DNA of 64,000 bases from a virus. Lineage: Duplodnaviria; Caudoviricetes. The notes beneath the pieces are model-generated. The model was not told the DNA's origin and did not search any database. It saw nothing but the letters and a program-made list of their open reading frames with translations. Location of the stretch: the IMG/VR virus record IMGVR_UViG_3300025715_000361, positions 1 to 64,000 of that record; one strand, written 5' to 3'. Each line of letters begins with the position of its first letter. Positions within the stretch are counted from its first letter, which is position 1. Shown one piece after another: positions 18,621 through 34,975 of this stretch. Made by a program: the position numbers and the translations under genes.

Positions 18621-19202
18621 ATGGCTTACAGAAAATTCGATGACCCGCCTCTCAGCAGGGACAATGCACCGAGGAAGATTTATCCCGCAATGCCGTGGGA
18701 GACGTTCAGACGGGCAATTCAGTCCATCACGAACCGTGTCGTAAGCGGCACGAATGGCACGATGGGTGGAACTGCCGGAATCGGTGCCGCATGGCTTGGA
18801 ACCGGAAGCACTGCCGGTCTTAAGCTGAATACGGCACTCGCCCTGTGCATCAATGGGCAGTATGGAACTGCAAGTGCACAGGACAACCTTTTCCTTCCGA
18901 CCGGTACGCAGAGCAAATCCACCTACGTGAAGTATCTGGTGGCGGCGAAGTTTGGAACGAATGCAACGATCTTTGCCGGTAACGAAGGGACGGATTCCAC
19001 GCATGCTTACCTTCCCGATTGCCCAGATGGATATGTGGCGGTTGGGTATATGGAGTATGTGACGGGAACTGCCGGTGCGTTCATCCGCTTCGGCGGCGGT
19101 ACGGCAGGCGGTGCGAACGTTGTTTCCGGCAATGCTGCGGCAACTTGCGGAACGGTTTCTGGGTACACCCAGCTTCTGCACATGCCGTTTAACGAAGTCT
19201 AA
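18621..19202 (+). CDS. Gly/Thr-rich virion protein (possible capsid decoration)
   Basis: 193 aa after the MCP; several GTAG-like motifs. Confidence 0.65.
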   Translation: MAYRKFDDPPLSRDNAPRKIYPAMPWETFRRAIQSITNRVVSGTNGTMGGTAGIGAAWLGTGSTAGLKLNTALALCINGQYGTASAQDNLFLPTGTQSKSTYVKYLVAAKFGTNATIFAGNEGTDSTHAYLPDCPDGYVAVGYMEYVTGTAGAFIRFGGGTAGGANVVSGNAAATCGTVSGYTQLLHMPFNEV

Positions 19203-19262
19203 ACAACTGGAGGGGGGAGGAGCGTATTCCTCTCTCCTCCATTAACATGAGGGAGAAACTAT

Positions 19263-19619
19263 ATGGGCAGAGTAAAAACAGATCAGGAAAAAAACCCTGA
19301 TAAATACTTTAACAGTCCGCAGGGTCACATTCGTGACAGGATCATTATCAGCGATTCGGCAGACATTCCGAGAGAAGGGATTTTCATCTCACTTAACGGT
19401 TTTGCTTTCCTTGCGAAACCGGGGGTGGAGATCGATTTGCCGAGGCCGGTAAGGCTGATGCTGGATACGAGGATCAAGACCGAAGTGGTACAGGTCGATG
19501 GCAAGGATCACGTGCGTCACATTAAAAGGTTCGCATACCAGATCGTTGCGTTGGATGTTGACAGTTTGGAGAAAGAAGCAGAGGTCGAATCGGCACAGCT
19601 TGAGGAGGCTGTTCAATGA
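19263..19619 (+). CDS. hypothetical virion-module protein
   Basis: 118-aa ORF, GGGAG RBS. Confidence 0.65.
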   Translation: MGRVKTDQEKNPDKYFNSPQGHIRDRIIISDSADIPREGIFISLNGFAFLAKPGVEIDLPRPVRLMLDTRIKTEVVQVDGKDHVRHIKRFAYQIVALDVDSLEKEAEVESAQLEEAVQ

Positions 19620-20368
19620 TCGGAAGGGAGTTGATTGCCCATCTCCGTGAAAGTATGCTTGATGATACCCAGTTGCCGTATCTGTGGCCTGATTCAGAGT
19701 TGTTGCGGTTTCTGAATTATGCGGAAGTACAGGCTTGCAGAAGGGCACATTTGATCATCGATGCGGAAACGACAAACGATAACGGGACAGCCGCAACTGC
19801 CGGGACGCTTGGACAACAACCATTATGCCGTGTATCCGTGGTTGCGAATCAAGCTACTTATATTTTAAGCCCGAAGATTTTGCAGATCAAGCGGTGCCAG
19901 TTGATGTCCATGCTGTACCCGTTGGAAGGGCCGTTGCATTATCCGCATCTTGACGAGCAAATGTCCGGTTGGTTTGGAACGTATGGGTCAAGCGGAACGG
20001 TAGGGACTGCGGGTACTGGAGGCGTTCCTTATGCCTTCATGAATGAACCGGGGAATACATTGACGTTTGTTTTAGCTCCCGGTGCATCGGATACGGCATT
20101 CTTGATCGTGTCGAGATTGCCGTTGACACAGTTTACATTGCAAACTTCTCCGGAAGTGCCGGAGAAGTATCATATCGATTTGTGCGATTGGGCGGCACAC
20201 CTTGCTTTAATGAAACCGGATTCTGATACGATAAACATGAATCTGGCGAAGGTGTACGAGGATCGATTCACGGCAAAATTCGGGCCGTTACCGGACGCAT
20301 ACAGCGACAGGATGAGGAAGGTTCTTGTCCAGAAAACGAGAATGCGTCCAAGGGAGTTCGGTAGTTAG
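19616..20368 (+). CDS. head-tail adaptor-like protein
   Basis: LW.DSELLRFLN.AE..ACRR...PE.YH..L..WAA..A pattern and position. Confidence 0.6.
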   Translation: MIGRELIAHLRESMLDDTQLPYLWPDSELLRFLNYAEVQACRRAHLIIDAETTNDNGTAATAGTLGQQPLCRVSVVANQATYILSPKILQIKRCQLMSMLYPLEGPLHYPHLDEQMSGWFGTYGSSGTVGTAGTGGVPYAFMNEPGNTLTFVLAPGASDTAFLIVSRLPLTQFTLQTSPEVPEKYHIDLCDWAAHLALMKPDSDTINMNLAKVYEDRFTAKFGPLPDAYSDRMRKVLVQKTRMRPREFGS

Positions 20369-20377
20369 GAGGTTAAA

Positions 20378-20584
20378 ATGGCGATTAAAAAAGGATCAAA
20401 GGAAAGTCCGCAGATTTTTGTCGTTACGGACAATCCCAACAAGCTTGGAACTACCCCGCTTAAAATCGGAGACATCGCAATCAATACGGGCCTTATGACG
20501 CTGTATTTTTGCAAGTCAACGGCAAAGGGAACTCCGGCTTCTGGGTGCGTTATCGATAGTTGGGGTACTGCGGGTACTGCGTAA
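20378..20584 (+). CDS. small virion protein ending in GTAGTA
   Basis: 68-aa ORF, GGAGG RBS. Confidence 0.65.
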   Translation: MAIKKGSKESPQIFVVTDNPNKLGTTPLKIGDIAINTGLMTLYFCKSTAKGTPASGCVIDSWGTAGTA

Positions 20585-20639
20585 TCCATAGGCGGGGGGA
20601 GCGGAACGACTTGCTCCCCCCGATTGAAAGGACGAAGCC

Positions 20640-21005
20640 ATGGAACGAAGCATCAAGACTATCAGTTTGTTTAAATCCCAGACGGTTGTTGCCGGAAGCT
20701 CCGGAATCTCCGATCCAATTGATCTCCGTGATATTTCGAAGAACGGAGATTTTTCCGTTTATTACAAGATCGACAAAGCCGGTGGAGTGGCAACTTGCGG
20801 TTCTGCAAAACTGTCGTTTACCGGGAGTCCTGTATATGACGGAACATACATCAGCCCGACAAATGGGACATTCGGGACGGTAGGCGATGGAGGCGGTAAT
20901 GATATTGTAGAGATAACGCCGCCCGTTATGCCGTTCATGAAAATCAACATTGCTATCGGTACCAGTGGCACGGCATTGGTGACTGCTTCTCTCCATGTCA
21001 GATAA
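20640..21005 (+). CDS. beta-rich virion protein
   Basis: 121-aa ORF containing GTSGT. Confidence 0.65.
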   Translation: MERSIKTISLFKSQTVVAGSSGISDPIDLRDISKNGDFSVYYKIDKAGGVATCGSAKLSFTGSPVYDGTYISPTNGTFGTVGDGGGNDIVEITPPVMPFMKINIAIGTSGTALVTASLHVR

Positions 21006-21016
21006 GGGGGTGCGTA

Positions 21017-21394
21017 ATGGCGAATATACGCAAACTGGTTCTGACAAGGGGCGACTCCAAGACTTACACTCTTACCTTTAAAGATGCGAATGGAAACCCT
21101 TATTGCCTGAAGAACTGGGTGGTTTTCTTCACAATGAAAACCAATTGGGAGCTTCCTGACGCACAAGCCTCACTCCAGAAAACCGTAACAACATTTGCCG
21201 ACACAACCGGAGGAACAAGCGGGGTGGCGTACATTACGTTGCTTCCATCGGATACGTCCGCTCTTGATCCCGGCGAATATGATTTTGATATTGCGGTTTG
21301 CACGAACCAAAATGCCGTTTACACGGTAATGAAGGGTAAAGTCGATCTTGAGTATGACGTAACGAATTCAACTGGTACTGCCGGGACTGCGTGA
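21017..21394 (+). CDS. BppU-N-like (baseplate upper/adaptor) protein ending in GTAGTA
   Basis: LTRGDSKTYTLTFKDANGNP...YDFDI...TVMKG pattern. Confidence 0.6.
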   Translation: MANIRKLVLTRGDSKTYTLTFKDANGNPYCLKNWVVFFTMKTNWELPDAQASLQKTVTTFADTTGGTSGVAYITLLPSDTSALDPGEYDFDIAVCTNQNAVYTVMKGKVDLEYDVTNSTGTAGTA

Positions 21395-22437
21395 TGGCTG
21401 ATGAAATAGAAGTCATTTTAGTAACTGCGGAAGCAATTTCCGTACAAGTTACCGATGAAAAAGAGATAAATTTAAGGACTGAGGGTAGCCTTGTTTCCAA
21501 CTCTGGTTCACACGGCACTTCAGGGACATCTGGCACTTCATCTGACGGTTCGCACGGGACTTCCGGCTCTTCTGGGACTTCTGGGACTTCTGGCACAGGG
21601 GAGTCCGGCACTTCTGGCACAAGTGGTACCTCTGGCACTTCAGGTGATGGCACTTCCGGCTCTTCCGGGACAAGCGGTACTTCAAGTGACGGGACATCAG
21701 GCACCTCCGGCACATCTGGAACTTCAGGAACCGGGACGAGCGGCACTTCAGGGACTTCAGGTACAAGTGCGGAAGGGAGTTCTGGGACTTCCGGCACCTC
21801 TGGTACAAGTGGTACTGGTGAATCTGGAAGCAGTGGAACATCGGGCACAAGCGGAACGGGGGAAGCTGGTAGCTCCGGCACATCAGGGACAAGCGGCACT
21901 TCAGGGGAGGGGAGTAGCGGGACAAGTGGGACATCCGGCGAGGACGGCTCATCTGGGACTTCAGGGACAAGCGGTAGCTCTGGCACAAGCGGAACCGGTG
22001 AGTCTGGGAGTAGCGGTAGCTCTGGGACTTCAGGTTCAAGTGGTGCGGGATCGTCTGGAACGAGTGGGACATCTGGTTCAACTGGGCTTACGGCAGTTGG
22101 GATTACATTTTTTGGTGCGGGAACGTCTATTTCTGCCGGGGTGCATGGATATGTAGCAATGCCTTTTAGTGCAACAATAAATTCTTGGTATATGGTGGCC
22201 GGTTCTGCGGGGACAATGGTTGTCGATGTTTGGAAAAAAGCCGGAAGCGTACCGACTGTTGCAGATACAATTGCAGGGAGTGAAAAACCAACTTTGACAG
22301 GGACTAATGTCGCAAGCGATACGAATTTGACGACATGGACAGATGTAGCGGTAACTGCGGGAGACATCATTGGATTTAATGTTGATTCCTGTGTGGGAAT
22401 AAACATGGCAACGCTTTCAATAGGGCTGAGTTTGTAA
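21391..22437 (+). CDS. fibre-like protein with about 190 aa of Gly-Thr-Ser repeats
   Basis: (GTS/GSS)n from about 21505 to 22085, with diversified codons, then a small beta domain. Confidence 0.8.
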   Translation: MMADEIEVILVTAEAISVQVTDEKEINLRTEGSLVSNSGSHGTSGTSGTSSDGSHGTSGSSGTSGTSGTGESGTSGTSGTSGTSGDGTSGSSGTSGTSSDGTSGTSGTSGTSGTGTSGTSGTSGTSAEGSSGTSGTSGTSGTGESGSSGTSGTSGTGEAGSSGTSGTSGTSGEGSSGTSGTSGEDGSSGTSGTSGSSGTSGTGESGSSGSSGTSGSSGAGSSGTSGTSGSTGLTAVGITFFGAGTSISAGVHGYVAMPFSATINSWYMVAGSAGTMVVDVWKKAGSVPTVADTIAGSEKPTLTGTNVASDTNLTTWTDVAVTAGDIIGFNVDSCVGINMATLSIGLSL

Positions 22438-22438
22438 A

Positions 22439-23671
22439 ATGGCTTACAGAGGATTCTCATTTAAGCATGGCGGTACAGTTGCCTCAATGTGGCTTTGCAT
22501 CCAAGGGTTCATGCAGAGCATTGGTTGGGAGCTGTACGATGACATTGCATCAAATATAAAAGTTTACAGATCAAACGGGGAATCTGGAAACGAGCATTAT
22601 GGATACGTTTATATGCAACAGGAAGCCACTTATATTGCGTATCGCTTTTTCCAGTATTGGGATTTATCCGCTCATGTAGGATACAGAGAACAGGTGATGG
22701 GCGGTACCACAAGTCAAAGGTTGGGCACTTTTGATAATACGATGGAATGTTTGCTCTGCGGAGACAAGGACATTGTTGCAATCATATATCCGGCAGAATC
22801 GAATACCGCAAATTCGTCCATTTGGTTTGGACATATCCCGAATAGGTTCGATAGGGTTACGTATGCGGATGGGACAGCAGGGACATCGGCAACGATATCG
22901 GTTGCATCAACCTCTGGGCTGTATGAAGGAAAGCAGATACAGATACTTGGTGCCGGGACAGAGGGATGTGAGAACCTTGACATAATAGAGATGGTCGATG
23001 CTTCTACCGTAATTGTAAGGAAGATGTCGAAGGACTATGGGACAGGTGCGGTTATAGGTGTTCCGGCATCAACATTTGGATGTGCGAACCCATATGTGGC
23101 GGTAGAAAGATGGTATCCGACAACACATATATCAGATTTGGGAACTGCTGTTCAGTCGCAATATTACAGTATTTATCCATTAATGGCTCCTGCTGTGGCA
23201 ACGGTTCAGCATCATTTTTCGAAAAAAGGGGCACCGGGGCCGTTATATTTTGTTTCTGATTCAGCCGGTACAACTGGTTGTATGGTTGGGTTTTTGTTAA
23301 AATACTTTCTATATGCTCGGAATGTGTCACAAACTTGGGACGCTTGCATCTATAACACTTCAGGAGAATATGGCACTTCCGCAACCGCATCCACATCAAG
23401 CGCAAACACATTGATTGAAACAGGCAGAACGTGGTCTGCGGATCAACACCTAAATAGAATGGTGCTTATTACAGCGGGAACAAACATTGGTCAATGTGCA
23501 AAAATAACGGGAAACGATGCAACGTCACTGTCAATAGATGGAACATGGGGGACAACATTTGGAACATCAAGGTACCAAATCTGCGATCAATTGTTTAGAG
23601 CACAAAGATATTCTTTGTATAATTATTTGCAGTTGCGAGTAACTGACACTACTGCACCGGTTCTTACATAG
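22439..23671 (+). CDS. tail/fibre-associated protein, paralog of 23680..24948
   Basis: Shared IGWE.YD...VYRSNGESG.E.YGY, GDKD, GH.P.RFD, GTAGT blocks. Confidence 0.75.
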   Translation: MAYRGFSFKHGGTVASMWLCIQGFMQSIGWELYDDIASNIKVYRSNGESGNEHYGYVYMQQEATYIAYRFFQYWDLSAHVGYREQVMGGTTSQRLGTFDNTMECLLCGDKDIVAIIYPAESNTANSSIWFGHIPNRFDRVTYADGTAGTSATISVASTSGLYEGKQIQILGAGTEGCENLDIIEMVDASTVIVRKMSKDYGTGAVIGVPASTFGCANPYVAVERWYPTTHISDLGTAVQSQYYSIYPLMAPAVATVQHHFSKKGAPGPLYFVSDSAGTTGCMVGFLLKYFLYARNVSQTWDACIYNTSGEYGTSATASTSSANTLIETGRTWSADQHLNRMVLITAGTNIGQCAKITGNDATSLSIDGTWGTTFGTSRYQICDQLFRAQRYSLYNYLQLRVTDTTAPVLT

Positions 23672-23679
23672 GGGGAGAT

Positions 23680-24948
23680 ATGTCGTATAAAGCATATGAA
23701 TTCAGGGCCGCAGACAGAGCGGCTTTCTGGGCCGCAATTCAGCCTTTCATGGGTGAGATTGGGTGGGAGGAATACGATGTAATTGATGCTGATACGATAG
23801 TATATCGCTCAAATGGCGAGTCTGGGAAAGAGCCATATGGTTACATTCATATCGATGCAGGGACATCCACATATATAGAATTTACGGCGTATCAGTATTG
23901 GAATTTGGCAACTCATACGGGAACAAGAAAGATGTGGGCATATAACACCCAAACGAATTCGAGAATTATTGGGTTTGGAGATTCCTATCCCGGGTTCATC
24001 CTTGCCGGAGACAAGGATTTGGTGTTTATGCTTTCAAATGCGGAATCCTATTCACAACAAATTACAAGTTATGGTGTTCTTTTTGGGCATTTGCCAATAC
24101 GGTTTGACACAAGATTGACAAACGCCGAAGGCACGGCCGGAACAGCGGGAACGATAACAGTCGAGTCGTCTGTTGGGTTTGGAGTTGGAAAATACGTGCA
24201 GATAGTCGGAGGAACAACCGGATGTGATTTACTGCAAATTACTGAAATTGTCGATACAAATACGATAAAAGTTGCGTCTTTAGCAAGAAACTACGGTACG
24301 GGGGCGGTGCTTGGTTCTCCCGGTTCGACATTTGGGATTATTGGTATTGGTCCCACAGTAGCTCAACGGTGGTTTCAAACATCATTTTATGGAGACTCAG
24401 GCACAACTGTCGGAAGCAGTTATTTAGCAGTGGGAAATATTGCAAACCCAACCGTGTATACAAACATGATGCACTTCACAAAGAAGTTCCATTTTGCTCC
24501 ATTTGTGGTTGCAACTGATTCTGCTTCAAGCCCCGGAATAATACTTGGATGTTATGGGACAAACTTTATGTATGGGAATTACAATTATGGGTATGAATTT
24601 TATGTAGAAAATAATGATGGGAGTGCTCCTGAAGTGGGAAGGACAACTGAGGGTGGCACAAACACTTTAAAGGATTCAAGGAAGTCGTGGACAGTAAACG
24701 AACATGTAGGTAAATTTGTTACAATTATGTCGGGTACGTACGCATACAAAGGCGGGACATATGGGATGTCAAAGAAAATTGCATCAAACACGGCAGATAC
24801 TCTAACATTAGTTTCTGATTGGAATGTAGTTCCGGATGGAACAACAATTTATGCGATACATGATATTTTGTGGAGGGCTACGCCAACATATACGATTGGC
24901 CAAAACTATTCTTTAATTAGGATAACTGACACGACTGTTCCATCATAG
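23680..24948 (+). CDS. tail/fibre-associated protein, paralog of 22439..23671
   Basis: See paralog; both end ...R.TDTT.P. Confidence 0.75.
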   Translation: MSYKAYEFRAADRAAFWAAIQPFMGEIGWEEYDVIDADTIVYRSNGESGKEPYGYIHIDAGTSTYIEFTAYQYWNLATHTGTRKMWAYNTQTNSRIIGFGDSYPGFILAGDKDLVFMLSNAESYSQQITSYGVLFGHLPIRFDTRLTNAEGTAGTAGTITVESSVGFGVGKYVQIVGGTTGCDLLQITEIVDTNTIKVASLARNYGTGAVLGSPGSTFGIIGIGPTVAQRWFQTSFYGDSGTTVGSSYLAVGNIANPTVYTNMMHFTKKFHFAPFVVATDSASSPGIILGCYGTNFMYGNYNYGYEFYVENNDGSAPEVGRTTEGGTNTLKDSRKSWTVNEHVGKFVTIMSGTYAYKGGTYGMSKKIASNTADTLTLVSDWNVVPDGTTIYAIHDILWRATPTYTIGQNYSLIRITDTTVPS

Positions 24949-24956
24949 AGGGAATA

Positions 24957-25205
24957 ATGGCGTTTAACTATTACGATGTGGAAGGGATAGAGAGTGGATT
25001 GTGTTCAACTGCGTTTGCGGAAGTGTTGCGTTTGGTGGCTTATAAAACTTTTATTGGATTCGCTACACCGGCTATACCGCCAACAGTGACAAGGATATCG
25101 CAAGCGTTGAATTGGAATTTGGGTGGAGGTGCGACAACGGCAGGGACTTCTGGCACAGGTGGCACAACCATCGTTGTCGGTGGATCATATACATGGATAG
25201 GGTGA
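24957..25205 (+). CDS. small virion protein with TAGTSGTGGT motif
   Basis: 82-aa ORF, GAGGG RBS. Confidence 0.6.
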   Translation: MAFNYYDVEGIESGLCSTAFAEVLRLVAYKTFIGFATPAIPPTVTRISQALNWNLGGGATTAGTSGTGGTTIVVGGSYTWIG

Positions 25206-25209
25206 TGAA

Positions 25210-25626
25210 ATGTTTGTTCAGATAGCACAGGCCGCACAGCAAGCGGCACAGGAAATAAAAGAACCCATTATAACGTGGAACCTTTTTGTAACTGGTTTTG
25301 GGATGCCACTCGGATTGTATATTTTGGGCCATTACATCAAACTGAAAATTGAAGCAAAATCCAAGGTGGATTCAGAGCTTGAAATTGAAAAAAAGAAGTC
25401 CTTGGAAACGTGGCAAGCCAACATGGAAAAGACGATCCTTCAATGGCAAGAGGGCGCAAAAGAAAGAACTGCGGGAATATGTAAAAAGCTTGATGAAATA
25501 AAAGATGAGGTGCACGCAAAGCAGGGAATAAGGGCTTGTGAAAAGAAACATGATGACATCGACAAAAAACACGATACTCTTGAAAAGAAGTTAAACCATA
25601 TCGAAGAAAAGGTGTTTTACGCATGA
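25210..25626 (+). CDS. single-TM coiled-coil protein (holin-like position)
   Basis: Hydrophobic LFVTGFGMPLGLYILG segment then charged coil; directly before the endolysin. Confidence 0.55.
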   Translation: MFVQIAQAAQQAAQEIKEPIITWNLFVTGFGMPLGLYILGHYIKLKIEAKSKVDSELEIEKKKSLETWQANMEKTILQWQEGAKERTAGICKKLDEIKDEVHAKQGIRACEKKHDDIDKKHDTLEKKLNHIEEKVFYA

Positions 25627-25991
25627 CGGAATTGCTTGAAAAACGACTGAGATTCACTCGCCATTTAACGGATTTAATAGTACACTTCAACCAGAAACCG
25701 GGGGTTGATGTGGCTTACGGGAGAGATTTTGATGAACAATACGAACGAACAAAAGACGGGAAGCCCCTCCGTCACATGCGGGGCAGCCTTCATTATTTGG
25801 GCCTTGCCAATGATGTCGCTTTATATTTGCACGGAAAATACCAAGAGAATACTGAGGCTTATGCTGAAATGGGAGCGTACTGGAAAAGCCTTGATGTCGA
25901 TAACCGCTGGGGAGGAGAATTTCGGGACAAAAAAGGAAACCCTGCTCCAGACGGATGCCACTTCAGTATCGAGTATCAAGGACGCAAATGA
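25623..25991 (+). CDS. endolysin, peptidase M15 family
   Basis: SLHYLGLAND (SxHxxxxAxD), WGG, DGCHFS zinc-binding motifs. Confidence 0.85.
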   Translation: MTELLEKRLRFTRHLTDLIVHFNQKPGVDVAYGRDFDEQYERTKDGKPLRHMRGSLHYLGLANDVALYLHGKYQENTEAYAEMGAYWKSLDVDNRWGGEFRDKKGNPAPDGCHFSIEYQGRK

Positions 25992-26584
25992 GAAGTCCTG
26001 AAATTGTCTTGGACAAGCGTTGGATGCCCGTTTTTTATGTGATCGCTATGACTGTTAAAGACTTGGATATTAGAAGGATGATTATTAAGACGATTTCCGT
26101 CTATGTGATGGCATCTCTCTCCGTCTTTAAGCGGGCGTCCAATGGTAGCTTCGGCAATGATAATATGTTCAAATACATATCCCTTTTTGTCGGCCCTTGG
26201 ATGATTATAAAGAAGAACCTTTTTGTATCCTTTTTTAATAATGTACGGTTTCTGGACATATTTTCCGTAACAAGAGGAAGAACAGAATCTTGGCTTCTTA
26301 CGATTGGTGCGATGATAAGCATAAAAAAGCTCTCCGCAATATTCACATCTATTTTGCAATGGCTTGGGATTATGAGGCTTTTCGCCACGAATTATATGCC
26401 GATAATGCTTGCGACAGTATCCTCTACCGAAGTGAGTGTCTCCACATATAGAGCAGGTCTTTCTTGCTGGGGTAGATTTGCGTTGTTCATTAAAATTTTT
26501 CCCTGTTTGCCATTTCCCGTAACAGGTGGCAGAACAAAATCTCTTGTTGATTGTTTTGGAACCACACACTTCACAAGTATTCAT
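25976..26584 (-). CDS. free-standing HNH homing endonuclease with N-terminal Cys4 zinc fingers (202 aa)
   Basis: CEVC/FCSATC, CSIC, CEYC/FCSSSC; HPRADKKGYVFEH...HHIDGNRLNNHPSN; AAAGGAGG RBS before ATG 26584. Confidence 0.9.
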   Translation of the reverse strand: MNTCEVCGSKTINKRFCSATCYGKWQTGKNFNEQRKSTPARKTCSICGDTHFGRGYCRKHYRHIIRGEKPHNPKPLQNRCEYCGELFYAYHRTNRKKPRFCSSSCYGKYVQKPYIIKKGYKKVLLYNHPRADKKGYVFEHIIIAEATIGRPLKDGERCHHIDGNRLNNHPSNIQVFNSHSDHIKNGHPTLVQDNFRTSHLRP

Positions 26585-26634: not shown

Positions 26635-26635
26635 T

Positions 26636-27119: not shown

Positions 27120-27226
27120 AATGGTACGATGTTTTGTTGGTTTTGGCAATGCTTTGCATGGTGTTGGGATTGGTGATGGTTGGATTGGGGTTGTTCTCAA
27201 ACCACACCTATCATCCATTTTATTAG
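27116..27226 (+). CDS. 36-aa hydrophobic membrane peptide
   Basis: Manual translation MKWYDVLLVLAMLCMVLGLVMVGLGLFSNHTYHPFY. Confidence 0.4.
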   Translation: MKWYDVLLVLAMLCMVLGLVMVGLGLFSNHTYHPFY

Positions 27227-27240
27227 GAGGATATGCGGAC

Positions 27241-27813
27241 ATGATGAAACGACTACTGACCATCGGATGCGTAACGCTGCTCCTTGCGACGCTGATTGGG
27301 TGCGGTCCCTCGGCGTTGCAGATTCAGGCCGAGATTGCGTACTACGAAGCGATCGCCTCTATTCAGAAGAACCAGGCCGCTAAACCATTGGTAAGGATTG
27401 TGCCAAGTGATCCAACCAAGGCAATGATGATGGACAACGTAGGGGCAATCGAAGTCTATCAGCAGGTGGCGGACAAGAGCATCGTCCAGTACCAGCAACG
27501 GGACTATTCCGAACCCGCCTGGCGTTTTCTCACGGCGGCAACGGGCATCATTGCACCGTGGGTAGGGGTAGGAGTGCTGGCCCATGAGTTCGGGCAGATG
27601 AATAACGGCACGACCTACAACTATCACAACGAGGTAGGGGCAGGGGCAACGGGGCAGTTCCGGGTAGTCGGCAATACAAGCGCAACAGGAGGGCCAGCGA
27701 CGGGGATCAGCGACGCGACAAGCGTCCCCACAGTTGTCAACCCGGTCATCATGGAACCGAGCGTGCATATTGTGCCGCAGCCGGAGCCTATCATAGTACA
27801 ACCAACCAAATAA
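27241..27813 (+). CDS. lipoprotein
   Basis: MMKRLLTIGCVTLLLATLIGC lipobox-like signal; AGGAGG RBS; the ORF-track start 27094 is probably too early. Confidence 0.65.
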   Translation: MMKRLLTIGCVTLLLATLIGCGPSALQIQAEIAYYEAIASIQKNQAAKPLVRIVPSDPTKAMMMDNVGAIEVYQQVADKSIVQYQQRDYSEPAWRFLTAATGIIAPWVGVGVLAHEFGQMNNGTTYNYHNEVGAGATGQFRVVGNTSATGGPATGISDATSVPTVVNPVIMEPSVHIVPQPEPIIVQPTK

Positions 27814-27823
27814 GGAGGATAAC

Positions 27824-28012
27824 ATGGTAGCGTATATCATCGACAGACTTAAGGAAGCATCGACTTGGCGTGGCATCATCGCATTTCTAACGGCGGCGGG
27901 CTTGTCCATCAGCCCCGAGTTGGGAGAGAAGATTATCGCCGTCGGCCTTGCCATCATCGGCGTCATCGGGATGGTGTTCAAGGACGGCAAGGGTGGAGCG
28001 GAGGTGAAGTGA
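27824..28012 (+). CDS. small two-TM holin-like protein
   Basis: RLKEASTWRGI...GLAIIGVIG; 62 aa. Confidence 0.65.
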   Translation: MVAYIIDRLKEASTWRGIIAFLTAAGLSISPELGEKIIAVGLAIIGVIGMVFKDGKGGAEVK

Positions 28013-28158
28013 TGGCAACATTCTTCAAACTGCTGTTTAGTCTGCTTGGGTCGAACAGTGTTTACAAGCTCATTGACAAGGCGTTGGACAACTACCACGC
28101 TCTCACACCAGAGCAAATCGCGGCTCTGAAAAAGAGGTTCGATGACATCCCCGAGTGA
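28012..28158 (+). CDS. 48-aa hypothetical protein
   Basis: MATFFKLLFSLLG...; GGAGG RBS. Confidence 0.5.
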   Translation: MATFFKLLFSLLGSNSVYKLIDKALDNYHALTPEQIAALKKRFDDIPE

Positions 28159-28168
28159 TTATAAGACC

Positions 28169-28315
28169 ATGAACCCATTGATTGCAAGGATTCTGCTGAC
28201 AGTTGCGATTAAGATGAAGCATTACGAGAACCTTACAGAAGATCAGAAAAAGGCTTTTCAGGAAGCCGTAAACAAACTGCCCGTAAGCGAACTGCAGACG
28301 GGAATGGAGCCATAG
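28169..28315 (+). CDS. 48-aa hypothetical protein
   Basis: Manual translation MNPLIARILLTVAIKMKHYENLTEDQKKAFQEAVNKLPVSELQTGMEP. Confidence 0.4.
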   Translation: MNPLIARILLTVAIKMKHYENLTEDQKKAFQEAVNKLPVSELQTGMEP

Positions 28316-28324
28316 GAGGATGGT

Positions 28325-28630
28325 ATGAAAAAGATTATCGTAGTGATTTTGGTATTGTTGGCAAGTACAGTTTTTGCCGCTGATCCATACATTGTAACAG
28401 ACCCTCAAGAGGGAGTTATCGGATATACTCTTGGCGGGTTGACGGATCAGACGGTTGCGGCACAGCAAGATGGATCGTTGCTTTATAACGTGCGGAGTGC
28501 TCCGATAGGAACAACCGAAGTAACAATTGCGGCTTGTAATTTATGGGGGGATTGCGGTGCCTCCGTCCCTTTCGTTTTAAAACGGATCGTACCGGGGCCG
28601 CCTGTTGGGACACGATTCGAGGTCAGATAG
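28325..28630 (+). CDS. secreted beta-sandwich-like protein
   Basis: Signal peptide MKKIIVVILVLLASTVFA; AGGAGG RBS. Confidence 0.6.
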   Translation: MKKIIVVILVLLASTVFAADPYIVTDPQEGVIGYTLGGLTDQTVAAQQDGSLLYNVRSAPIGTTEVTIAACNLWGDCGASVPFVLKRIVPGPPVGTRFEVR

Positions 28631-28631
28631 T

Positions 28632-29099
28632 ATGCGTAGAGTATTTCACATACTTGCCATTGTGATGATAGCGGCACAGGCATACGCATTGGATTGCAGT
28701 CACAAGCCCCCATGCCCTCCCGGCACAACGGCACAAGAGTCGGTTTCTTGCGATGCCTGTTGTCCTACTGGTTCATTCATTACCAGTGCAGAAGATAAGT
28801 TTTGTTGCCCAGAGGGTTATATCCCATCTCCAGATAACACAAACTGCATTCCAAAAGGGGCGTTCCTCAAGTCTGATGGAACGTGTTATGTCATGAATGA
28901 GACAGATGCCTGTTGTCTGGCGGGATGGCACACCGTAAATCAGTATGAATGCTGTCCAGATGGTTTCACACTTGCTACTGATAATGAATTTTGCTGTACG
29001 CAAAGAGCGGACGGGAAATGTTGTGCTCCGAATTTCAGGTTGAATGTACTGACTGGACGTTGCATTCCCCCGAAGCCAACGGGGGTGATGTTAAGGTGA
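28632..29099 (+). CDS. secreted cysteine-rich protein (18 Cys, CC doublets)
   Basis: Signal peptide MRRVFHILAIVMIAAQAYA; CCPTG, CCPEG, CCLAG, CCPDG repeats. Confidence 0.65.
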   Translation: MRRVFHILAIVMIAAQAYALDCSHKPPCPPGTTAQESVSCDACCPTGSFITSAEDKFCCPEGYIPSPDNTNCIPKGAFLKSDGTCYVMNETDACCLAGWHTVNQYECCPDGFTLATDNEFCCTQRADGKCCAPNFRLNVLTGRCIPPKPTGVMLR

Positions 29100-29329
29100 A
29101 GTCGTTAGAGGAAAGAAGGAAATCGGATAGGGAAAGACAGGCAAAGTGCCGAAACAAGAAACTGGAGAAAGAGTTTTACGCAGAATTTTCCAAACTCAAA
29201 ACCATGAAGGAGGGGGCAGAATGGATGAGGATGAGGAGAATAAACCAGTGGAAACCGCCGTTAAAAGATATGGAAGCAATATGGAGGGAATTGCATGGTG
29301 ACTGTGAAAGTCGGCAAGGCTGTGAGTGA
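29096..29329 (+). CDS. basic hypothetical protein
   Basis: GTG start overlapping the previous stop, within ORF 28991..29329. Confidence 0.45.
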   Translation: MKSLEERRKSDRERQAKCRNKKLEKEFYAEFSKLKTMKEGAEWMRMRRINQWKPPLKDMEAIWRELHGDCESRQGCE

Positions 29330-29864
29330 AGACATTATCACGATAAAGGAAGTCCACAACATTCCACAGGAGAAGTTACCGGCAATATGTTTTTGCAACG
29401 GGTTTACTTCTCTTTTTGGGATGCTGATTTCGTTGCGGACAAACGAGTATTATAACCATTTCATGATGCTTACAAGCCCTCATGAATTCGCAAGCCAATG
29501 GTGGTGGTACAAGAAATTCCCGGTGGAGCATTTTTCTAAACACGCCATTAAAATCGTTTGGAACGAAAATTGGACGGATGTCCAGAGGAAGGTGATACTC
29601 CAATCGGTTGAAAACCGCATGAAAGAAGGGCCGTGGAAAACGAGGTATGACATCCTTGGGGTTATCGGACAGGCTATCGGGGTTCCAAGTCTCCAGAACA
29701 AGAAACTGGATTACTGCTCCGAAACAATCAAGCATATTGCTTTGGTTGATCCTGAATGTGCGAAGTTTTTGGATAGTGAACCGCACCCGAGGCCGGAAGA
29801 AATTAACGATTGGGTAAAAACGCAATCAGGATACAGAACCTTGGCAAGAGTGGTACCAGAATAG
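29295..29864 (+). CDS. permuted papain-like (YiiX/YebB-type NlpC/P60) enzyme
   Basis: YNHFMM His before RYD..G and YCSE Cys. Confidence 0.6.
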   Translation: MVTVKVGKAVSEDIITIKEVHNIPQEKLPAICFCNGFTSLFGMLISLRTNEYYNHFMMLTSPHEFASQWWWYKKFPVEHFSKHAIKIVWNENWTDVQRKVILQSVENRMKEGPWKTRYDILGVIGQAIGVPSLQNKKLDYCSETIKHIALVDPECAKFLDSEPHPRPEEINDWVKTQSGYRTLARVVPE

Positions 29865-29869
29865 GTTAT

Positions 29870-29929
29870 GCTTCGGGGGATAGGCTTATAACCGAAAGCC
29901 GGACTCCCTCACCGGCCCTCCCCCGAAGC
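29870..29929 (+). other. branched stem-loop leader upstream of the glycosyltransferase
   Basis: GCTTCGGGGGA/TCCCCCGAAGC outer stem enclosing GCCGG/CCGGC inner stem. Confidence 0.45.
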
Positions 29930-29969
29930 CACTTACAAGAGGGATACCCTACGAGGGATAGGAGGATTC

Positions 29970-32852
29970 ATGTTTAAAGAGATTAAGGTAGTAGCGACAT
30001 TTAACGAAAGAACTGGGTACGGGATTCACGGTTCGAGGTTTTTCCCGAAACTGTTGGATCGTCTTGGAAAGTTTAAGGACGGAGAGGGTGTTGCTACCGT
30101 ATCCCTCCTTGATGTGGTATCTGCCTCCCATGTCACGGCAGTTCACCCGTCTCCGTCCATCCTTTACAACGTCTGGGAGTCAACGGAATATCCAATGGCT
30201 TTCATGGAGAAGCTGAAAAATTACGATCAGCTTTGGGTTCCTTCTGAATGGCAGAGGTCTTGTTCAATTGCACAGGGAATACCGGAAGAGTTTGTAAAGG
30301 TAGTGCCGGAAGGCGTTGATCCAGATGTTTACAAGCCAGTAGATGTTGAAATCGGGGAAATATTTACATTTGTTCATGTGGGGCAATGGCAACCGAGAAA
30401 ATCCACTTTGGAAGTCATACAGTCTTTTTTGAAAGCGTTTCCAGACAACGACAGCGTGCGGTTGGAATTGTCTGTGGATACGTTGTTTCCATCGGATCAG
30501 TACAAATCCACTGAAGAAAGGTTGGAAGCCTGTGGCATCAAAGACAAAAGAATCATCGTTGTGCATTTCGAGGAAAGAGAGGACTATATCAGGAGGTTAC
30601 AGAGGGCGGGGTGCTTTGTTAGCTGTTCACGTTCCGAGGGATGGGGTTTGCCGATCATCGAGGCAATGGCGTGTGGAGTACCGACAATCGTGGCAGATTT
30701 TGGAGGTTCAACCGAGTACGCTTTTGATGCGATTAAAGTACGTGTGCCTAAACTGATTAAGCCCTATGGGATTTACGGAAACTGGGATGTGCCGGGGTAC
30801 TGGGGAGAGCCTGATTTCGATCATCTGGTGGAGCAAATGAGGGCTGTTTACAGCGATTATTACGGTTACAAGAAAAGAGCCCTTGAATCATCTGAACGGA
30901 TAAGGCGGGACTTCTCATGGGACAAGGCCGCAGACAAGGCTATGGTGATTCTTGAAAGTCTGTCACAGCGGTACAAGCCACAGGAATACAAGATCGAAAA
31001 CAAGAAAGAAGGAGTTTTCGTGGTGGATTGCTGGCCCAGTTCAAAAGAAAAGATGCAAACGCTTGTTGAAACGGTTGAGCAAATCCATAGTTACGGGTTT
31101 CCGGTGATTATAACTTCTCATTATGCCCTGCCGGATGAGGTGATTAAAAAGGCAGAATACTACATTTATGACCGTGAAGATATCATGTCTGGTGATGACA
31201 AACCCTATTATTGGAGAATCAGACCGGACGGAACAAGGGAAACAAAACGAGCCAATGTCGAATATCAGGGTGTCGCCGCAATAAACAACTTCCGGAATGC
31301 CATCGATTTCTGCCGAGGAAGGTTCGAGTGGGTATACCAGATGGGGGCAGACATTGAGGTCGATATGGAAACGTGGTTATCCCTTGTTTCGTCCTCTGAT
31401 AAAGACTTGGTTTGCATCCCGTATGAAGGAGTTAAAAACGGCGTTGGCGGCGGTATCATGGCCGGTAAAACGGAACTATATGACAAGCTGATACCAAGGC
31501 TGAAATCATGGAAGCAGTATGCAGACCTGTACCCGAATGAGAAGTTTGTTGCGGAACGATGGCTTTACCGTTACTTCACCGATACAATGCCGGATTTCGA
31601 TAACATTGTCGATTGGGTGAATATTGAGACAACAAACAGGTGGGATAACGTGGACAGAACGGTTTGGAAAGACGATGACTTTATCTGCCATTTCGTAGAA
31701 GGGCCGTTCCTTCAGATTGTCGGGGGAAGTGTAAACGAATACGATGTGGAGTGGTCAACTCCAACCAATCCGCTTTTGTACACGTTGAAGCAGAAAGCGG
31801 GAATGTGGAGCCGTCCGAATATAAAATATTATCAGCCGTGGACTGTCAAGGCGAAGCTGAACGGGGAAGTCAAATTTGAGCATTCCTTTGATCCCAGAGG
31901 GAAAAGGGTTCTTGTGTGCATGGGGTCAAAGGCTTTGGGTGACACTTTGGCGTGGATGCCCTATGTAGAAGAATTCCGTAAAAAGTGGGATTGCCACTTG
32001 ATCTGTTCGAGTTGGTGGATTGACATTCTGGATTACCCTGAAATTGAATACGTGAAGCCGGGTTCTGGGGTGGAAAACATTTACGCAAGTTTCAATGTGG
32101 GGTGTTTTGACAATCAGTTGGAATTGAATGTCGAAAACTGGAGAACAACGATACTCCAGAAAGTGTCTGCGGACATCCTTGGGATCGATTACACGCCGAT
32201 AAAGGCAAAGCTGAAATTTACTCCGCACCGTGAAGGGAACGGGAAACCCAAAAAGCCATACGTTTGCTTTTCGGAATACTCGACCATGCAGAACAAATTC
32301 TGGAACCGTGATGGGGCGTGGCAGAATATTATCGATTACCTTGTTGATCTTGGATACGATTGCATTTCTATAAGCCCTGAAGGTACTTTGCTTAAAAACG
32401 TGGTTCAACATAACGGACAGCCAATTGAGCATACAATTGCAGATATTGCCGGATGTGAATTTTATCTTGGCTTGAACCATGGCCCCGCATGGATTGCTTA
32501 TTCGCTTGGTGTCCCTGCGGTGATGATTACGGGAGTGAGTGAACCGTGGAACGATTTCCCGAATCCGTACAGGGTTTCGAGCGATGTGTGCAGACCGGGG
32601 TGTTTCAACGATCCGTCCCTTCCAATCAATCGGGGTTGGGAATGGTGTCCACGAAACAAGAATTACGAGTGTACGAGAGCGATAACAGAAGGAATGGTAA
32701 TTGAAGCAATAAATCGGTTGAGAAAGGATTACGGGTATGCCTGCGAAATCCAAAAAACAGCGGAGATTGATGGCGATGGCAGAACACCATCCGGAAATGA
32801 TCTCGGAGAAGAACAGTGGGGTGCTGTCAATGTCAAAAGACCAGTTGCATGA
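29970..32852 (+). CDS. three-domain glycosyltransferase: GT4 + unassigned middle domain + TibC/Aah-like protein O-glycosyltransferase
   Basis: GT4: SRSEGWGLPIIEAMACG; C-terminal GKRVLV..GSKALGDTLAWMPYVEEFRKK...GLNHGPAWIAYSLG and Cys motif CRPGC...WCP...EC. Confidence 0.8.
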   Translation: MFKEIKVVATFNERTGYGIHGSRFFPKLLDRLGKFKDGEGVATVSLLDVVSASHVTAVHPSPSILYNVWESTEYPMAFMEKLKNYDQLWVPSEWQRSCSIAQGIPEEFVKVVPEGVDPDVYKPVDVEIGEIFTFVHVGQWQPRKSTLEVIQSFLKAFPDNDSVRLELSVDTLFPSDQYKSTEERLEACGIKDKRIIVVHFEEREDYIRRLQRAGCFVSCSRSEGWGLPIIEAMACGVPTIVADFGGSTEYAFDAIKVRVPKLIKPYGIYGNWDVPGYWGEPDFDHLVEQMRAVYSDYYGYKKRALESSERIRRDFSWDKAADKAMVILESLSQRYKPQEYKIENKKEGVFVVDCWPSSKEKMQTLVETVEQIHSYGFPVIITSHYALPDEVIKKAEYYIYDREDIMSGDDKPYYWRIRPDGTRETKRANVEYQGVAAINNFRNAIDFCRGRFEWVYQMGADIEVDMETWLSLVSSSDKDLVCIPYEGVKNGVGGGIMAGKTELYDKLIPRLKSWKQYADLYPNEKFVAERWLYRYFTDTMPDFDNIVDWVNIETTNRWDNVDRTVWKDDDFICHFVEGPFLQIVGGSVNEYDVEWSTPTNPLLYTLKQKAGMWSRPNIKYYQPWTVKAKLNGEVKFEHSFDPRGKRVLVCMGSKALGDTLAWMPYVEEFRKKWDCHLICSSWWIDILDYPEIEYVKPGSGVENIYASFNVGCFDNQLELNVENWRTTILQKVSADILGIDYTPIKAKLKFTPHREGNGKPKKPYVCFSEYSTMQNKFWNRDGAWQNIIDYLVDLGYDCISISPEGTLLKNVVQHNGQPIEHTIADIAGCEFYLGLNHGPAWIAYSLGVPAVMITGVSEPWNDFPNPYRVSSDVCRPGCFNDPSLPINRGWEWCPRNKNYECTRAITEGMVIEAINRLRKDYGYACEIQKTAEIDGDGRTPSGNDLGEEQWGAVNVKRPVA

Positions 32853-32928
32853 CTTTGCGGCAACATCGGAAAAAAATCTGCCTAACCGCAAGCGGAAGGG
32901 ATACGGGTTGGGGAAGAAGAGAAAATAA
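32737..32928 (+). CDS. small basic protein (DUF3008-like)
   Basis: MPAKSKKQRRLM...SMSKDQLHDFAAT..KNLP; overlaps the GT 3' end by 116 nt. Confidence 0.55.
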   Translation: MPAKSKKQRRLMAMAEHHPEMISEKNSGVLSMSKDQLHDFAATSEKNLPNRKRKGYGLGKKRK

Positions 32929-32941
32929 GGAGGATTGAAAA

Positions 32942-33112
32942 ATGGCAAAGGGATTTGGGCTTGGAAAACCGGAAGTGGAAACGGAAACCATGGGGCCGTT
33001 GACGAAGCTTTATTTGCAGGCAAAAGTCGCAAAAGAGGTTGAAGAGAGGAAAAAAGCAGAACCACCGCCTGCTCCTCCTCCTCCTGAAGAAAAGAAGGTA
33101 AAGCCTTATTAA
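32942..33112 (+). CDS. 56-aa Pro/Glu-rich protein
   Basis: Manual translation MAKGFGLGKP...PPPAPPPPEEKKVKPY; AGGAGG RBS. Confidence 0.5.
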   Translation: MAKGFGLGKPEVETETMGPLTKLYLQAKVAKEVEERKKAEPPPAPPPPEEKKVKPY

Positions 33113-33124
33113 TAGGTAGGGAAA

Positions 33125-34054
33125 ATGCAAGGGCAATTCGAGCAAAGTTTGGATCGGTTTTCCGGTCTTGACAATGTACGGGACAAGCACAGGCTGATTC
33201 CGCAACCGATTTACCATAAAGGGATATATCTTGTTCCGTTATGGCAAGCGGACAATGTTGAGATCGATGATACTCACCAGTTGAAATCGAGGTCTGGATA
33301 TACAAGGGTTGCGTCTGGATCACAGATACACTCCATGTGGTCGAACAATGAGGTCTGCTTATATGTGGATGGGACTTCGTTGATGCAACTGAATTCAAGC
33401 TATTCGTCAATTACTTTGAGAACCGGCCTGACACCGAATGCGAGAATGTCATATGCGGACTTCAACGACAAAATCTACTACTCGAATGAATTCGAGATCG
33501 GGTTTGTAAGGAATTCAACGAACAACGGTGTTGTTGATCCGAGTATGGCGTTCAAGAAAGACATCCCTGCCGGTCAGTTGCTTGCTGTTTACAATTCAAG
33601 TTTGTTCGTGGCAAGGGACGATACGTTGTATATCTCTGATCCGCTGTGCGATTATTACGATATCAGGAAGGGATACCGCAGATTCAATAACCGGATAACG
33701 ATGGTGAGGCCGGTTAGCGATGGAATCTACATTTCCGATGATCGCATATGGTTCATGTCCGGCCCGTCAAACGAAGATTTTGAATTGTCGGAAGCGTATC
33801 CTTCTCAAGCATTGCCGAATACTGATGTGAATGTTGCCGGACAGTATGTCAGCGAAGAGGGAATGCAGGGCGTGGTTGCCATATGGACATCAAGGGATGG
33901 CATCTGCTTGGGTGATAGCAAGGGGAAGGTCATAAGCCTTACTGAATCAAGGTATGATTATGGCACAGCCGGTACTGCGGGAATAAGGAGGAGAGGGGCG
34001 GCGTATATCAGGGAGATAAACAATCAGAGACACTACATCAATTCAATGTATTAG
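33125..34054 (+). CDS. tail/nozzle-like beta-rich structural protein
   Basis: 309 aa, beta-propeller-like composition, contains GTAGTAG. Confidence 0.6.
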   Translation: MQGQFEQSLDRFSGLDNVRDKHRLIPQPIYHKGIYLVPLWQADNVEIDDTHQLKSRSGYTRVASGSQIHSMWSNNEVCLYVDGTSLMQLNSSYSSITLRTGLTPNARMSYADFNDKIYYSNEFEIGFVRNSTNNGVVDPSMAFKKDIPAGQLLAVYNSSLFVARDDTLYISDPLCDYYDIRKGYRRFNNRITMVRPVSDGIYISDDRIWFMSGPSNEDFELSEAYPSQALPNTDVNVAGQYVSEEGMQGVVAIWTSRDGICLGDSKGKVISLTESRYDYGTAGTAGIRRRGAAYIREINNQRHYINSMY

Positions 34055-34066
34055 GAGGACGGGAAA

Positions 34067-34519
34067 ATGGCATTCAGACTTTCGACAGGGTTAAGGACGG
34101 GGCTTCTTGGGACTTGGGGTTTTAAGGAGCTTATGGACAACGGGTGGCTGGATATTTACACCGGAGCACAGCCGACACATCCGGATTACGTGGAAACCGG
34201 CACGAAACTGGTACGGATCAGTTCCACGTGCGGAGCCGGAGTTGATGACGGTTGCAAGTTTGGGACAGCCGGTACGGGGGTTCTTCCAATCGGCGGGGTT
34301 GCGTGGCAGGGTGTTGTGCTTGCGGACGGAGTTGCCGGATGGGCAAGATACTATGCTTCTTCAGGAACGGGCGGCCAAACCGGAACAAGCGGTACGGCGA
34401 TCAGATTTGACTTGTCTGTTGGAGTATCCGGTGCTGACCTGAACCTTTCACATACGAGCCTGACAACGGGTGCTACGCTCACAATTACTGCGGCAAACGT
34501 GACTCAGCCGGAAGAATAA
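34067..34519 (+). CDS. Gly/Thr-rich structural protein, paralog of 34532..34975
   Basis: MAFRLSTGLR...LDIYTGAQP...AGWAR...RFDLSVG. Confidence 0.7.
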   Translation: MAFRLSTGLRTGLLGTWGFKELMDNGWLDIYTGAQPTHPDYVETGTKLVRISSTCGAGVDDGCKFGTAGTGVLPIGGVAWQGVVLADGVAGWARYYASSGTGGQTGTSGTAIRFDLSVGVSGADLNLSHTSLTTGATLTITAANVTQPEE

Positions 34520-34531
34520 CGGAGGTGCGTC

Positions 34532-34975
34532 ATGGCTTTTAGAATGAGCACAAGCCTGAAGGACTATCTTTGCACGGCAGGGATAGTTACAAATTTTGCC
34601 GGTACAACGGGAACTGGTGGAACTGCGGTACTGTATATCTATACGAACACGCAACCGGCAAGTGCGGACGAAGGTGATTGCGGAACCCTTTCCGGTACGT
34701 TCGGGACGATACTTGCGGTGATTGAAGGAATAGGGTGGGGCACTGCTCTAACCGGAACGTGTGCTTTTGCAACTGCGGGAGGGTATTCGTCAACGTCGAG
34801 AACTGCCGGGACAGCGGGATGGGCAAGGCTTGAGTGCATAAATGACAATGGTACTTGCCGTATCGATGGAAATGTAGGGACTGGGTTAGGAAATGTCTGG
34901 ACAATCAATCAGGCGATTTTTGCAACAAACGGGGAAACAGTCACTTTGACATCCGCAGATGTTTACATGGGGTAA
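34532..34975 (+). CDS. Gly/Thr-rich structural protein, paralog of 34067..34519
   Basis: MAFRMSTSLK...LYIYTNTQP...AGWAR...RIDGNVG. Confidence 0.7.
   Translation: MAFRMSTSLKDYLCTAGIVTNFAGTTGTGGTAVLYIYTNTQPASADEGDCGTLSGTFGTILAVIEGIGWGTALTGTCAFATAGGYSSTSRTAGTAGWARLECINDNGTCRIDGNVGTGLGNVWTINQAIFATNGETVTLTSADVYMG

Follow-up and report, generated by a model that had tools for sequence, protein, structure and literature searches.

A Gly-Thr-(Ala/Ser)-Gly-Thr peptide on neck, tail and fibre proteins of a metagenomic phage encoding a TibC-related enzyme: a probable sugar-attachment tag

A pentapeptide, Gly-Thr-(Ala/Ser)-Gly-Thr (GT[AS]GT), is found on about ten neck, tail and fibre proteins encoded in the first 64 kb of a 75,938-bp IMG/VR virus record that is rated complete (IMGVR_UViG_3300025715_000361); this 64-kb stretch is referred to as the window. 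The window also encodes a 960-amino-acid (aa) enzyme related to the protein O-glycosyltransferase TibC, and the combination of both indicates that the pentapeptide is probably a tag for the attachment of sugar. With moderate confidence, the findings are interpreted as a phage-encoded glycosylation system with a portable tag. The genes of the tagged proteins are located on the structural arm, the plus-strand part of the window from approximately 9.4 to 51.4 kb; the minus-strand arms carry early and non-structural genes (Table 1).

A six-frame scan of the window revealed 37 matches to GT[AS]GT, all of them in plus-strand frames, and not one in any minus-strand frame. The array gene (21391-22437), encoding a collagen-like fibre protein, contains 26 of these matches. 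The other 11 (positions 20003, 20564, 20958, 21374, 22871, 24130/24139, 25143, 33962, 34262 and 34382) are spread over nine proteins, and the array protein is the tenth carrier. A preliminary description of this DNA had listed the motif at a series of coordinates, with codons differing among the copies and without occurrence in the minus-strand enzymes. Every listed coordinate was recovered by the scan, the codon usage does vary from copy to copy and the minus-strand enzymes are free of the motif. The full pentapeptide is present at most of these sites; at some only four-residue GT[AS]G variants are found, namely in 18621-19202 (three), 34532-34975 (one) and 35855-37705 (two), and the membership of the last-named protein in the tagged set is weak. 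The number of at least ten tagged proteins given earlier is reached with the nine proteins plus the array protein, but the proteins starting at 22439 and 23680 and those starting at 34067 and 34532 are paralog pairs, which reduces the set to about eight independent protein families. No copy is encoded in the genes of the major capsid protein, the portal, the scaffold, the terminase and the 3209-aa protein with which the structural arm ends. The tag is thus a feature of neck, tail and fibre proteins and not of the whole virion, for which the earlier term "virion-wide" was an overstatement. The suggested comparison of structural and non-structural proteins gave a strong enrichment of the motif in the former and none in the latter.

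Chance or amino acid composition as the source of the motif was ruled out by two null models. The number of GT[AS]GT copies expected from composition is 0.001-0.02 per protein, and shuffling within the proteins resulted in a mean of 0.10 total matches (maximum of 3 in 5000 trials) compared to the 11 observed. The Gly-Thr dipeptide is 2.5-fold over-represented throughout the block from 18.6 to 38 kb (0.9-fold in the rest of the genome), which is in favour of a purely structural role, in which Gly/Thr-rich beta-turns and mini collagen-like stretches are conserved for folding or flexibility and never modified, while the transferase acts elsewhere. Against this stands a first-order Markov expectation of 0.42 matches for the same block; since the Markov model absorbs the Gly-Thr bias, the 11 matches are an excess beyond that bias. 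A purely structural role is considered rather unlikely, also with regard to the distribution and the position of the motif described in the following.

A search with the capsid protein retrieved 80 related viral loci, from which clade loci (capsid proteins at least 70% identical, with 3 kb or more of sequence downstream) and outgroup loci (capsid proteins 55-64% identical) were defined. The motif is present in all 35 clade loci, in one to six different open reading frames (ORFs) each, and in none of the seven outgroup loci, not even as a single copy. The tags are found at orthologous positions, although the identity of the proteins is only 35-70%. A C-terminal GT[AS]G[TS] is present in 31 of 32 orthologs of the Ig-like protein E, with G120, T121 and G123 being invariant, and all eight members of the family of the 68-aa protein C end with WGT[AC]GT[AG]-stop. 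The GTAGT core of GTAGTAGT in protein H is invariant in six members of the G/H family, which are 38-48% identical to H. Orthologs of the 147-aa protein (34532..34975) conserve TGTAGWAR, and in those of the 193-aa protein downstream of the capsid gene (18621..19202) GT[AS]GT is frequent at the first site. Among its orthologs, the C-terminal tag of protein E is encoded by 25 distinct versions of 15 nucleotides. A repeat or site acting at the DNA level was rejected on account of these versions and of the differing codons.

Insertions account for several of the copies. In the head-to-tail adaptor, GTAGT is part of the Gly/Thr-rich 12-aa insertion SSGTVGTAGTGG, and a second Gly/Thr/Ala insertion of 15 aa (DNGTAATAGTLGQQP) is located at aa 54-68; both are missing from the 40%-identical adaptor of outgroup contig G004, and only one of them holds the motif. 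The expectation that the tag should appear as an insertion relative to homologs was thus confirmed for the adaptor. In the adaptor loops of some relatives, three or more motif copies are found. In the adaptors of two relatives (one of them L055:12851-13987), the tag loop is enlarged by an insertion exceeding 100 aa, which contains extra GTAGT and GTSG copies. The GTAGTAG of protein J is situated in a six-residue insertion, which is limited to the lineage of the window itself. The conservation of a peptide in 25 DNA versions together with its repeated gain by insertion points to selection on the peptide rather than to a DNA element. Judged from these alignments, the motif is under peptide-level selection and new copies are repeatedly gained by insertion. 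The insertion of exact motif units into loops is also difficult to reconcile with a purely structural role.

Among the clade contigs that include the capsid gene and extend far enough downstream, several also encode the 960-aa enzyme; a TibC-like gene was not found in the four outgroup contigs searched (G002-G005), which are fragments. In G005, homologs of the adaptor and of the proteins J and K are encoded within about 5 kb, and the gap between adaptor and J is approximately 1.9 kb, compared to 13 kb including the enzyme gene in the window. The co-occurrence of tag and enzyme predicted earlier is therefore seen in the clade (35 of 35 versus 0 of 7 loci for the motif, with no transferase in the outgroup contigs searched).

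For protein E, AlphaFold2 (alignment of 32 sequences, pLDDT 84) predicted an Ig-like beta-sandwich, with the conserved GGTSG in the loop between strands 53-57 and 70-75 and the last 13 residues, including GTAGTA, unstructured. The surface exposure to be expected for an acceptor site is thus supported by the model for both sites of this protein. The nearest structures identified with Foldseek are chains of the T5 tail tip (7QG9 L/J), of the DT57C baseplate and of the Bas63 connector, and the resemblance to these external chains suggests that protein E is an external decoration protein of neck or tail. For protein H, the model was of low quality (pLDDT 49.6), and its motif, placed there in a hairpin turn (strands 146-151 and 157-161), provides weak evidence; the sequence pattern strand-tag-strand is displayed by several further tag sites. 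A look-up in the ESM Atlas returned hypothetical phage proteins only. The location of many sites in hairpin turns would suit a purely structural role as well, for which, however, the near-invariant pentapeptide in the unstructured C-terminal tail of two unrelated proteins is an obstacle, since no folding role is obvious there. A cleavage site of a prohead protease was ruled out: two of the tags form the very end of their proteins, and the motif is carried by components of neck and tail, not by capsid or scaffold. None of the tag-bearing proteins matched an autotransporter or target-repeat family, even at E values up to 10, by which target repeats of the autotransporter type were excluded.

In the 960-aa enzyme, aa ~64-332 form a GT4 domain and aa ~599-917 a protein O-glycosyltransferase domain of the TibC/Aah type, with a middle part in between. 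The GT4 domain matches Pfam Glycos_transf_1 (aa 135-251, 58.1 bits, cutoff 26.4) and the glycosyltransferase family phrog_2170 (E 3e-28). The TibC-like domain aligns with residues 68-389 of TibC (PDB 4RAP_A, phmmer E 4.5e-35) and matches NCBIfam TIGR04414 (hepto_Aah_TibC, "autotransporter strand-loop-strand O-heptosyltransferase") at aa 599-917 with 183.1 bits (E 7.4e-54), in agreement with the TibC/Aah-type transferase already proposed for this gene. In TibC, Asp-110 is the catalytic base, Thr-226 and Lys-230 contact the beta-phosphate, Trp-305 contacts O4 of the heptose and an iron finger is formed by Cys-339, 342, 358 and 370 (PMC4358343). The first four residues align to identical residues in the phage enzyme (positions counted by hand). 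All four cysteines of the putative iron finger are kept as well, with C-x3-C instead of C-x2-C in the first pair. Asp, Lys, Trp and three of the cysteines are invariant in eight phage homologs. Judged by these matches, the 960-aa protein is related to a bona fide protein O-glycosyltransferase and is itself intact. The enzyme of the window has no tag copy; that of a relative (L014:17631-20672 / L006:9992-13033) carries GTSGTSG at about residue 132 and may be self-tagged. In another relative (L003:1963-3014, IMGVR_UViG_3300002220_003351), the glycosyltransferase gene is interrupted by approximately 1 kb between the GT4 residues ~231 and ~245; the flanks align in full, and the insertion may be an intein or another mobile insertion.

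The fibre protein encoded by the array gene contains about 190 aa of (G-T/S-S)n with its motif copies overlapping, followed by a globular C-terminal domain. Uninterrupted Gly-X-Y repeats, which may form a triple helix, are visible. The short tags of the other proteins (5-8 residues) are too short to count as a collagen-like repeat, and nucleation of a collagen triple helix by them was ruled out, as they comprise fewer than three triplets.

Arrays of this type are also found beside TibC-like genes in other phages. A profile search of IMG/VR with the TibC-like domain gave at least 577 matches. A large ORF with a collagen-like array lies within 10 kb in about a third to a half of the loci with only 35-41% identity, and in several of them it is immediately downstream of the TibC-like gene. 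The most frequent triplet of the arrays in distant loci is GTS or GSS in most cases, and one of both is among the top five in all. For the reverse test, the only criterion for fetching records was a DNA pattern encoding five Gly-Thr-(Ser-like) triplets in a row, and control records were fetched by a Gly-Pro-X array pattern. A TibC-like gene is present in 11 of 47 viral records with a GTS array and in 1 of 48 controls (Fisher p = 0.0018), in a comparison of mostly fragmentary records in which the positives may be interrelated. The proportion is 9 of 18 for GTS-array records of at least 40 kb, and the density of TibC-like genes amounts to 5.0 per Mb in GTS-array records versus 0.63 in controls. 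TibC-like genes beside GTS arrays recur in many uncultured phages, with sizes of 12 to 299 kb. This association in unrelated phages is a further argument against a purely structural role of the motif.

Since the association across phages concerns the arrays and not the short tags, and since tags on several proteins are specific for the clade, the enzyme might glycosylate the (GTS)n fibre only, in the manner of BclA-type collagen-like glycoproteins, with the short tags serving as docking or recognition peptides for another partner, e.g. in assembly onto the fibre or collar. This would also be in line with the highly repeated substrates of TibC-type enzymes (PMC4358343). It is nevertheless regarded as quite improbable: the short tags share the peptide unit of the array and the clade of the enzyme, it is difficult to imagine a single docking partner serving about ten proteins at different positions of the virion, and no candidate reader protein was identified.

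Among GenBank phages, a TibC-like domain is found in four records only, Microcystis phage Mel-JY01 and three records of huge phages. In Mel-JY01 (PP395634.1, L416:3065-8430), the only cultured phage found with this domain, it forms the C-terminus of a 1226-aa protein annotated as FkbM methyltransferase, the gene of which directly follows that of a Ser-rich structural protein (ISSS/SGS) devoid of GTS units. The ISSS/SGS repeats may be a different type of acceptor, and acceptor peptides thus probably differ between lineages.

Several observations weigh against the interpretation of the pentapeptide as an acceptor tag of the TibC-like enzyme. For this phage, which is known only from metagenomes, glycosylation is a prediction from sequence. 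The TIGR04414 score is just below the 200-bit equivalog cutoff, which makes the enzyme a relative rather than an equivalog. TibC modifies Ser and was reported not to modify Thr (PMC4358343); in the short tags, Thr is the only conserved hydroxyl residue, the middle residue being usually Ala. If the tags are acceptors, the specificity of the enzyme has therefore changed. Arg-286 of TibC, which contacts N1 of adenine and explains the use of ADP-sugars, and Pro-300, the residue responsible for heptose stereoselectivity (PMC4358343), align with Thr and Asn, respectively, in the phage enzyme. A His precedes the Thr by one position, and due to a gap upstream the register at Arg-286 is uncertain by one residue. 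As Arg-286 is not conserved, ADP-heptose cannot be assumed as donor. Furthermore, in about half of the distant loci a GTS array is missing within 10 kb of the TibC-like gene, and short tags scattered over several proteins are found only in the clade of the window, the distant phages with TibC-like genes showing arrays. The contrast between clade and outgroup is effectively one evolutionary event, with the outgroup contigs being fragments, and FGTAGT in protein K is one substitution away from its orthologs and could be drift in Gly/Thr-rich loops. A single phylogenetic event and copies arising by single substitutions in such loops would equally fit a purely structural role. From the acceptor-tag proposal of the preliminary description, enrichment, co-distribution, insertion, exposure and the enzyme domain were all borne out by the checks suggested there, while its virion-wide scope was not, and the Ser specificity of TibC as well as the loss of Arg-286 speak against it. 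The broader proposal that phages recruited a TibC-type enzyme as a general system for glyco-tagging of virions, in which G-T-[A/S]-G-T would suffice for O-glycosylation of Thr in any loop or terminus that has received it, is put forward tentatively.

For a glycosylation system with a portable tag, the following scheme is proposed, in which the action of the enzyme on tag peptides, the residue modified, the sugar used and the role of the glycan are what we infer. The 960-aa enzyme would be expressed late and target Gly-Thr-(Ala/Ser)-Gly-Thr units, attaching sugar to their hydroxyl residues, most likely Thr. It would act mainly on the collagen-like fibre with its long (G-T/S-S)n array. Exposed hairpin loops and C-terminal tails would have gained copies of one to three units of the array peptide as portable tags, and the tagged adaptor, collar, fibre and other neck and tail proteins would be decorated too. 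Extension or modification of the glycan would be the task of the GT4 domain and of a separate sugar-tailoring cluster. The glycan could stabilise the triple helix in a proline-poor fibre, shield against proteases or immunity, or serve in adhesion.

The sugar-tailoring cluster encodes two B12-binding radical SAM enzymes, an SDR epimerase/dehydratase, a second GT4 enzyme, a SPASM radical SAM enzyme and a CmcI-type sugar O-methyltransferase (E 1.7e-73), and possibly builds or decorates the donor sugar. The CmcI-type gene is present in four of five near-complete relatives. A scan of the larger ORFs outside the cluster, a second SDR and a primase-helicase among them, revealed no genes of heptose-nucleotide synthesis; the second SDR may be a recent acquisition, as indicated by its high GC content. 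The three radical SAM genes allow for another modification of the tag, which could be methylated, cross-linked or otherwise altered instead of glycosylated, given that radical SAM enzymes are frequent peptide maturases and that the SPASM and B12-binding families include peptide-modifying enzymes. This is deemed highly improbable. The genes are clustered with those of SDR, CmcI-type methyltransferase and GT4, which points to sugar chemistry, and are located on the early, non-structural strand. Moreover, the cluster is not constant in the clade, as a complete relative without the CmcI gene keeps the TibC-like gene, and no link of such radical SAM genes to GTS arrays was seen elsewhere.

In addition to the features in Table 1, the structural arm comprises a portal-sized and a scaffold-sized gene, many small Gly/Thr-rich proteins, an M15 endolysin and LamG-like fibre parts. 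The early arms encode an AAA_21/AAA_15 (AbiEii-like) ATPase and a Lar-like restriction-alleviation protein (60785-62035 (-) and 2027-2629 (-)). In a megablast search, none of the GenBank phages matched the region.

Table 1. Features of the window, with coordinates, strand and sequence characteristics
Feature	Coordinates	Strand	Characteristics
Second NAD-dependent sugar epimerase/dehydratase (SDR)	458-1624	-	54% GC (surrounding 42-43%)
Terminase-sized gene	11493-13769	+	Pfam intein splicing domain match, aa 84-317
Major capsid protein	17525-18514	+	Pfam Phage_capsid_4
193-aa protein directly after capsid gene	18621..19202	+	Three GTAG variants in Gly/Thr-rich loops
Head-to-tail adaptor	19616..20368	+	Pfam SU10_adaptor; GTAGT at aa 130-134
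Protein C, 68 aa	20378..20584	+	C-terminal WGTAGTA-stop
121-aa beta-rich protein	20640..21005	+	GTSGT between hydrophobic stretches (MKINIAI-GTSGT-ALVTASLHV)
Protein E, 125-aa Ig-like collar/connector protein	21017..21394	+	phrog_1084; GGTSG loop, C-terminal GTAGTA
348-aa collagen-like fibre protein	21391..22437	+	Pfam Collagen, 42.4 bits (cutoff 27.2)
Protein G, 410-aa structural protein	22439..23671	+	Paralog of protein H; GTAGTS at aa 145
Protein H, 422 aa	23680..24948	+	Paralog of protein G; GTAGT core within GTAGTAGT
82-aa protein	24957..25205	+	TAGTSGTGGT near C-terminus; motif kept in a relative
960-aa candidate tag-modifying enzyme	29970..32852	+	GT4 domain, middle part, TibC/Aah-type domain
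Protein J, 309 aa	33125..34054	+	phrog_8040 ("head closure Hc3"); GTAGTAG
150-aa virion structural protein	34067..34519	+	phrog_3758; GTAGT and GTSGT in Gly/Thr-rich loops
147-aa paralog of 34067..34519	34532..34975	+	phrog_3758; TAGTAGW
616-aa structural protein	35855..37705	+	Two GTSG four-residue variants only
3209-aa protein	41755-51384	+	Sole Pfam match HATPase_c_3 (GHKL-type ATPase), aa 1445-1579; no tag copies
Sugar-tailoring gene cluster	51381..60340	-	Radical SAM (two B12-binding, one SPASM), SDR, CmcI-type and GT4 enzymes

In bacteria, tibC adjoins tibA and aah adjoins aidA, so that a dedicated transferase gene is located beside the gene of a repetitive surface protein. The phage system would work in a similar way, with hyperglycosylation of a repetitive surface protein whose gene is close by. 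The phage system resembles TibC/Aah (BAHT; PDB 4RAP/4RB4; PMC4358343) in the homologous C-terminal ~320 aa of the enzyme with its catalytic residues kept, in the proximity of the enzyme gene to genes of repetitive beta-rich or fibre proteins as candidate substrates, and in the strand-loop-strand context of the candidate acceptor. In contrast to TibC/Aah, the enzyme is encoded by a phage, its TibC-like domain is combined with a GT4 domain and a middle part in one protein, the candidate substrates belong to the virion instead of being autotransporter passengers, a 5-aa Gly-Thr tag and collagen-like arrays take the place of the 19-aa passenger repeats, and Thr is conserved rather than Ser, in addition to the loss of Arg-286 and the score below the equivalog cutoff.

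Threonine glycosylation of collagen-like proteins is established for the GPT repeats of Bacillus BclA, which are O-glycosylated, and for the cuticle collagen of Riftia, which is galactosylated. Both have Thr-rich Gly-X-Y arrays in common with the phage fibre, and the sugar on their Thr replaces hydroxyproline or decorates a surface filament; in the phage, Thr is in the X position (G-T-S), the enzyme belongs to another family and tags are found outside the collagen-like protein. GtfA/GtfB (GT4) transfer O-GlcNAc to serine-rich repeat adhesins of Gram-positive cocci. Here, the likeness consists in a GT4 enzyme that initiates or elongates O-glycans on low-complexity repeats, rich in Ser/Thr, of a surface fibre, while the phage GT4 domain gives only generic family matches, no accessory Sec system is present and the type of repeat is different.

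Protein glycosylation of phage particles has, to our knowledge, been shown in very few systems. According to Freeman et al. 2023, glycosyltransferases of Che8-type mycobacteriophages reportedly modify the C-termini of capsid and tail-tube proteins. There, as predicted here, phage transferases would decorate the structural proteins of the phage itself, including C-terminal extensions; the mycobacteriophage enzymes belong to another family, the hosts are actinobacteria and the targets are capsid and tail tube, which are untagged in the window. For cluster F phages, an inference of virion glycosylation is mentioned in PMC11256854. Full-text literature searches retrieved no description of phage-encoded TibC-like (BAHT) enzymes, of glycosylated collagen-like phage fibres or of a shared sequon on phage structural proteins. 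Likewise, we know of no short sequon common to about ten phage proteins that has been described for virion glycosylation.

If the proposed glycosylation is true, the TibC/Aah family extends from bacterial adhesins to phage virions, and a simple explanation would be available for the Gly-Thr-Ser collagen-like arrays, which are very common in phage fibres. A tag of five residues together with a single enzyme would be a candidate tool for the site-directed O-glycosylation of recombinant proteins. Glycosylated fibres would be a common, so far unrecognised feature of environmental phages, and such widespread sugar coats would bear on host recognition, protease resistance and particle stability.

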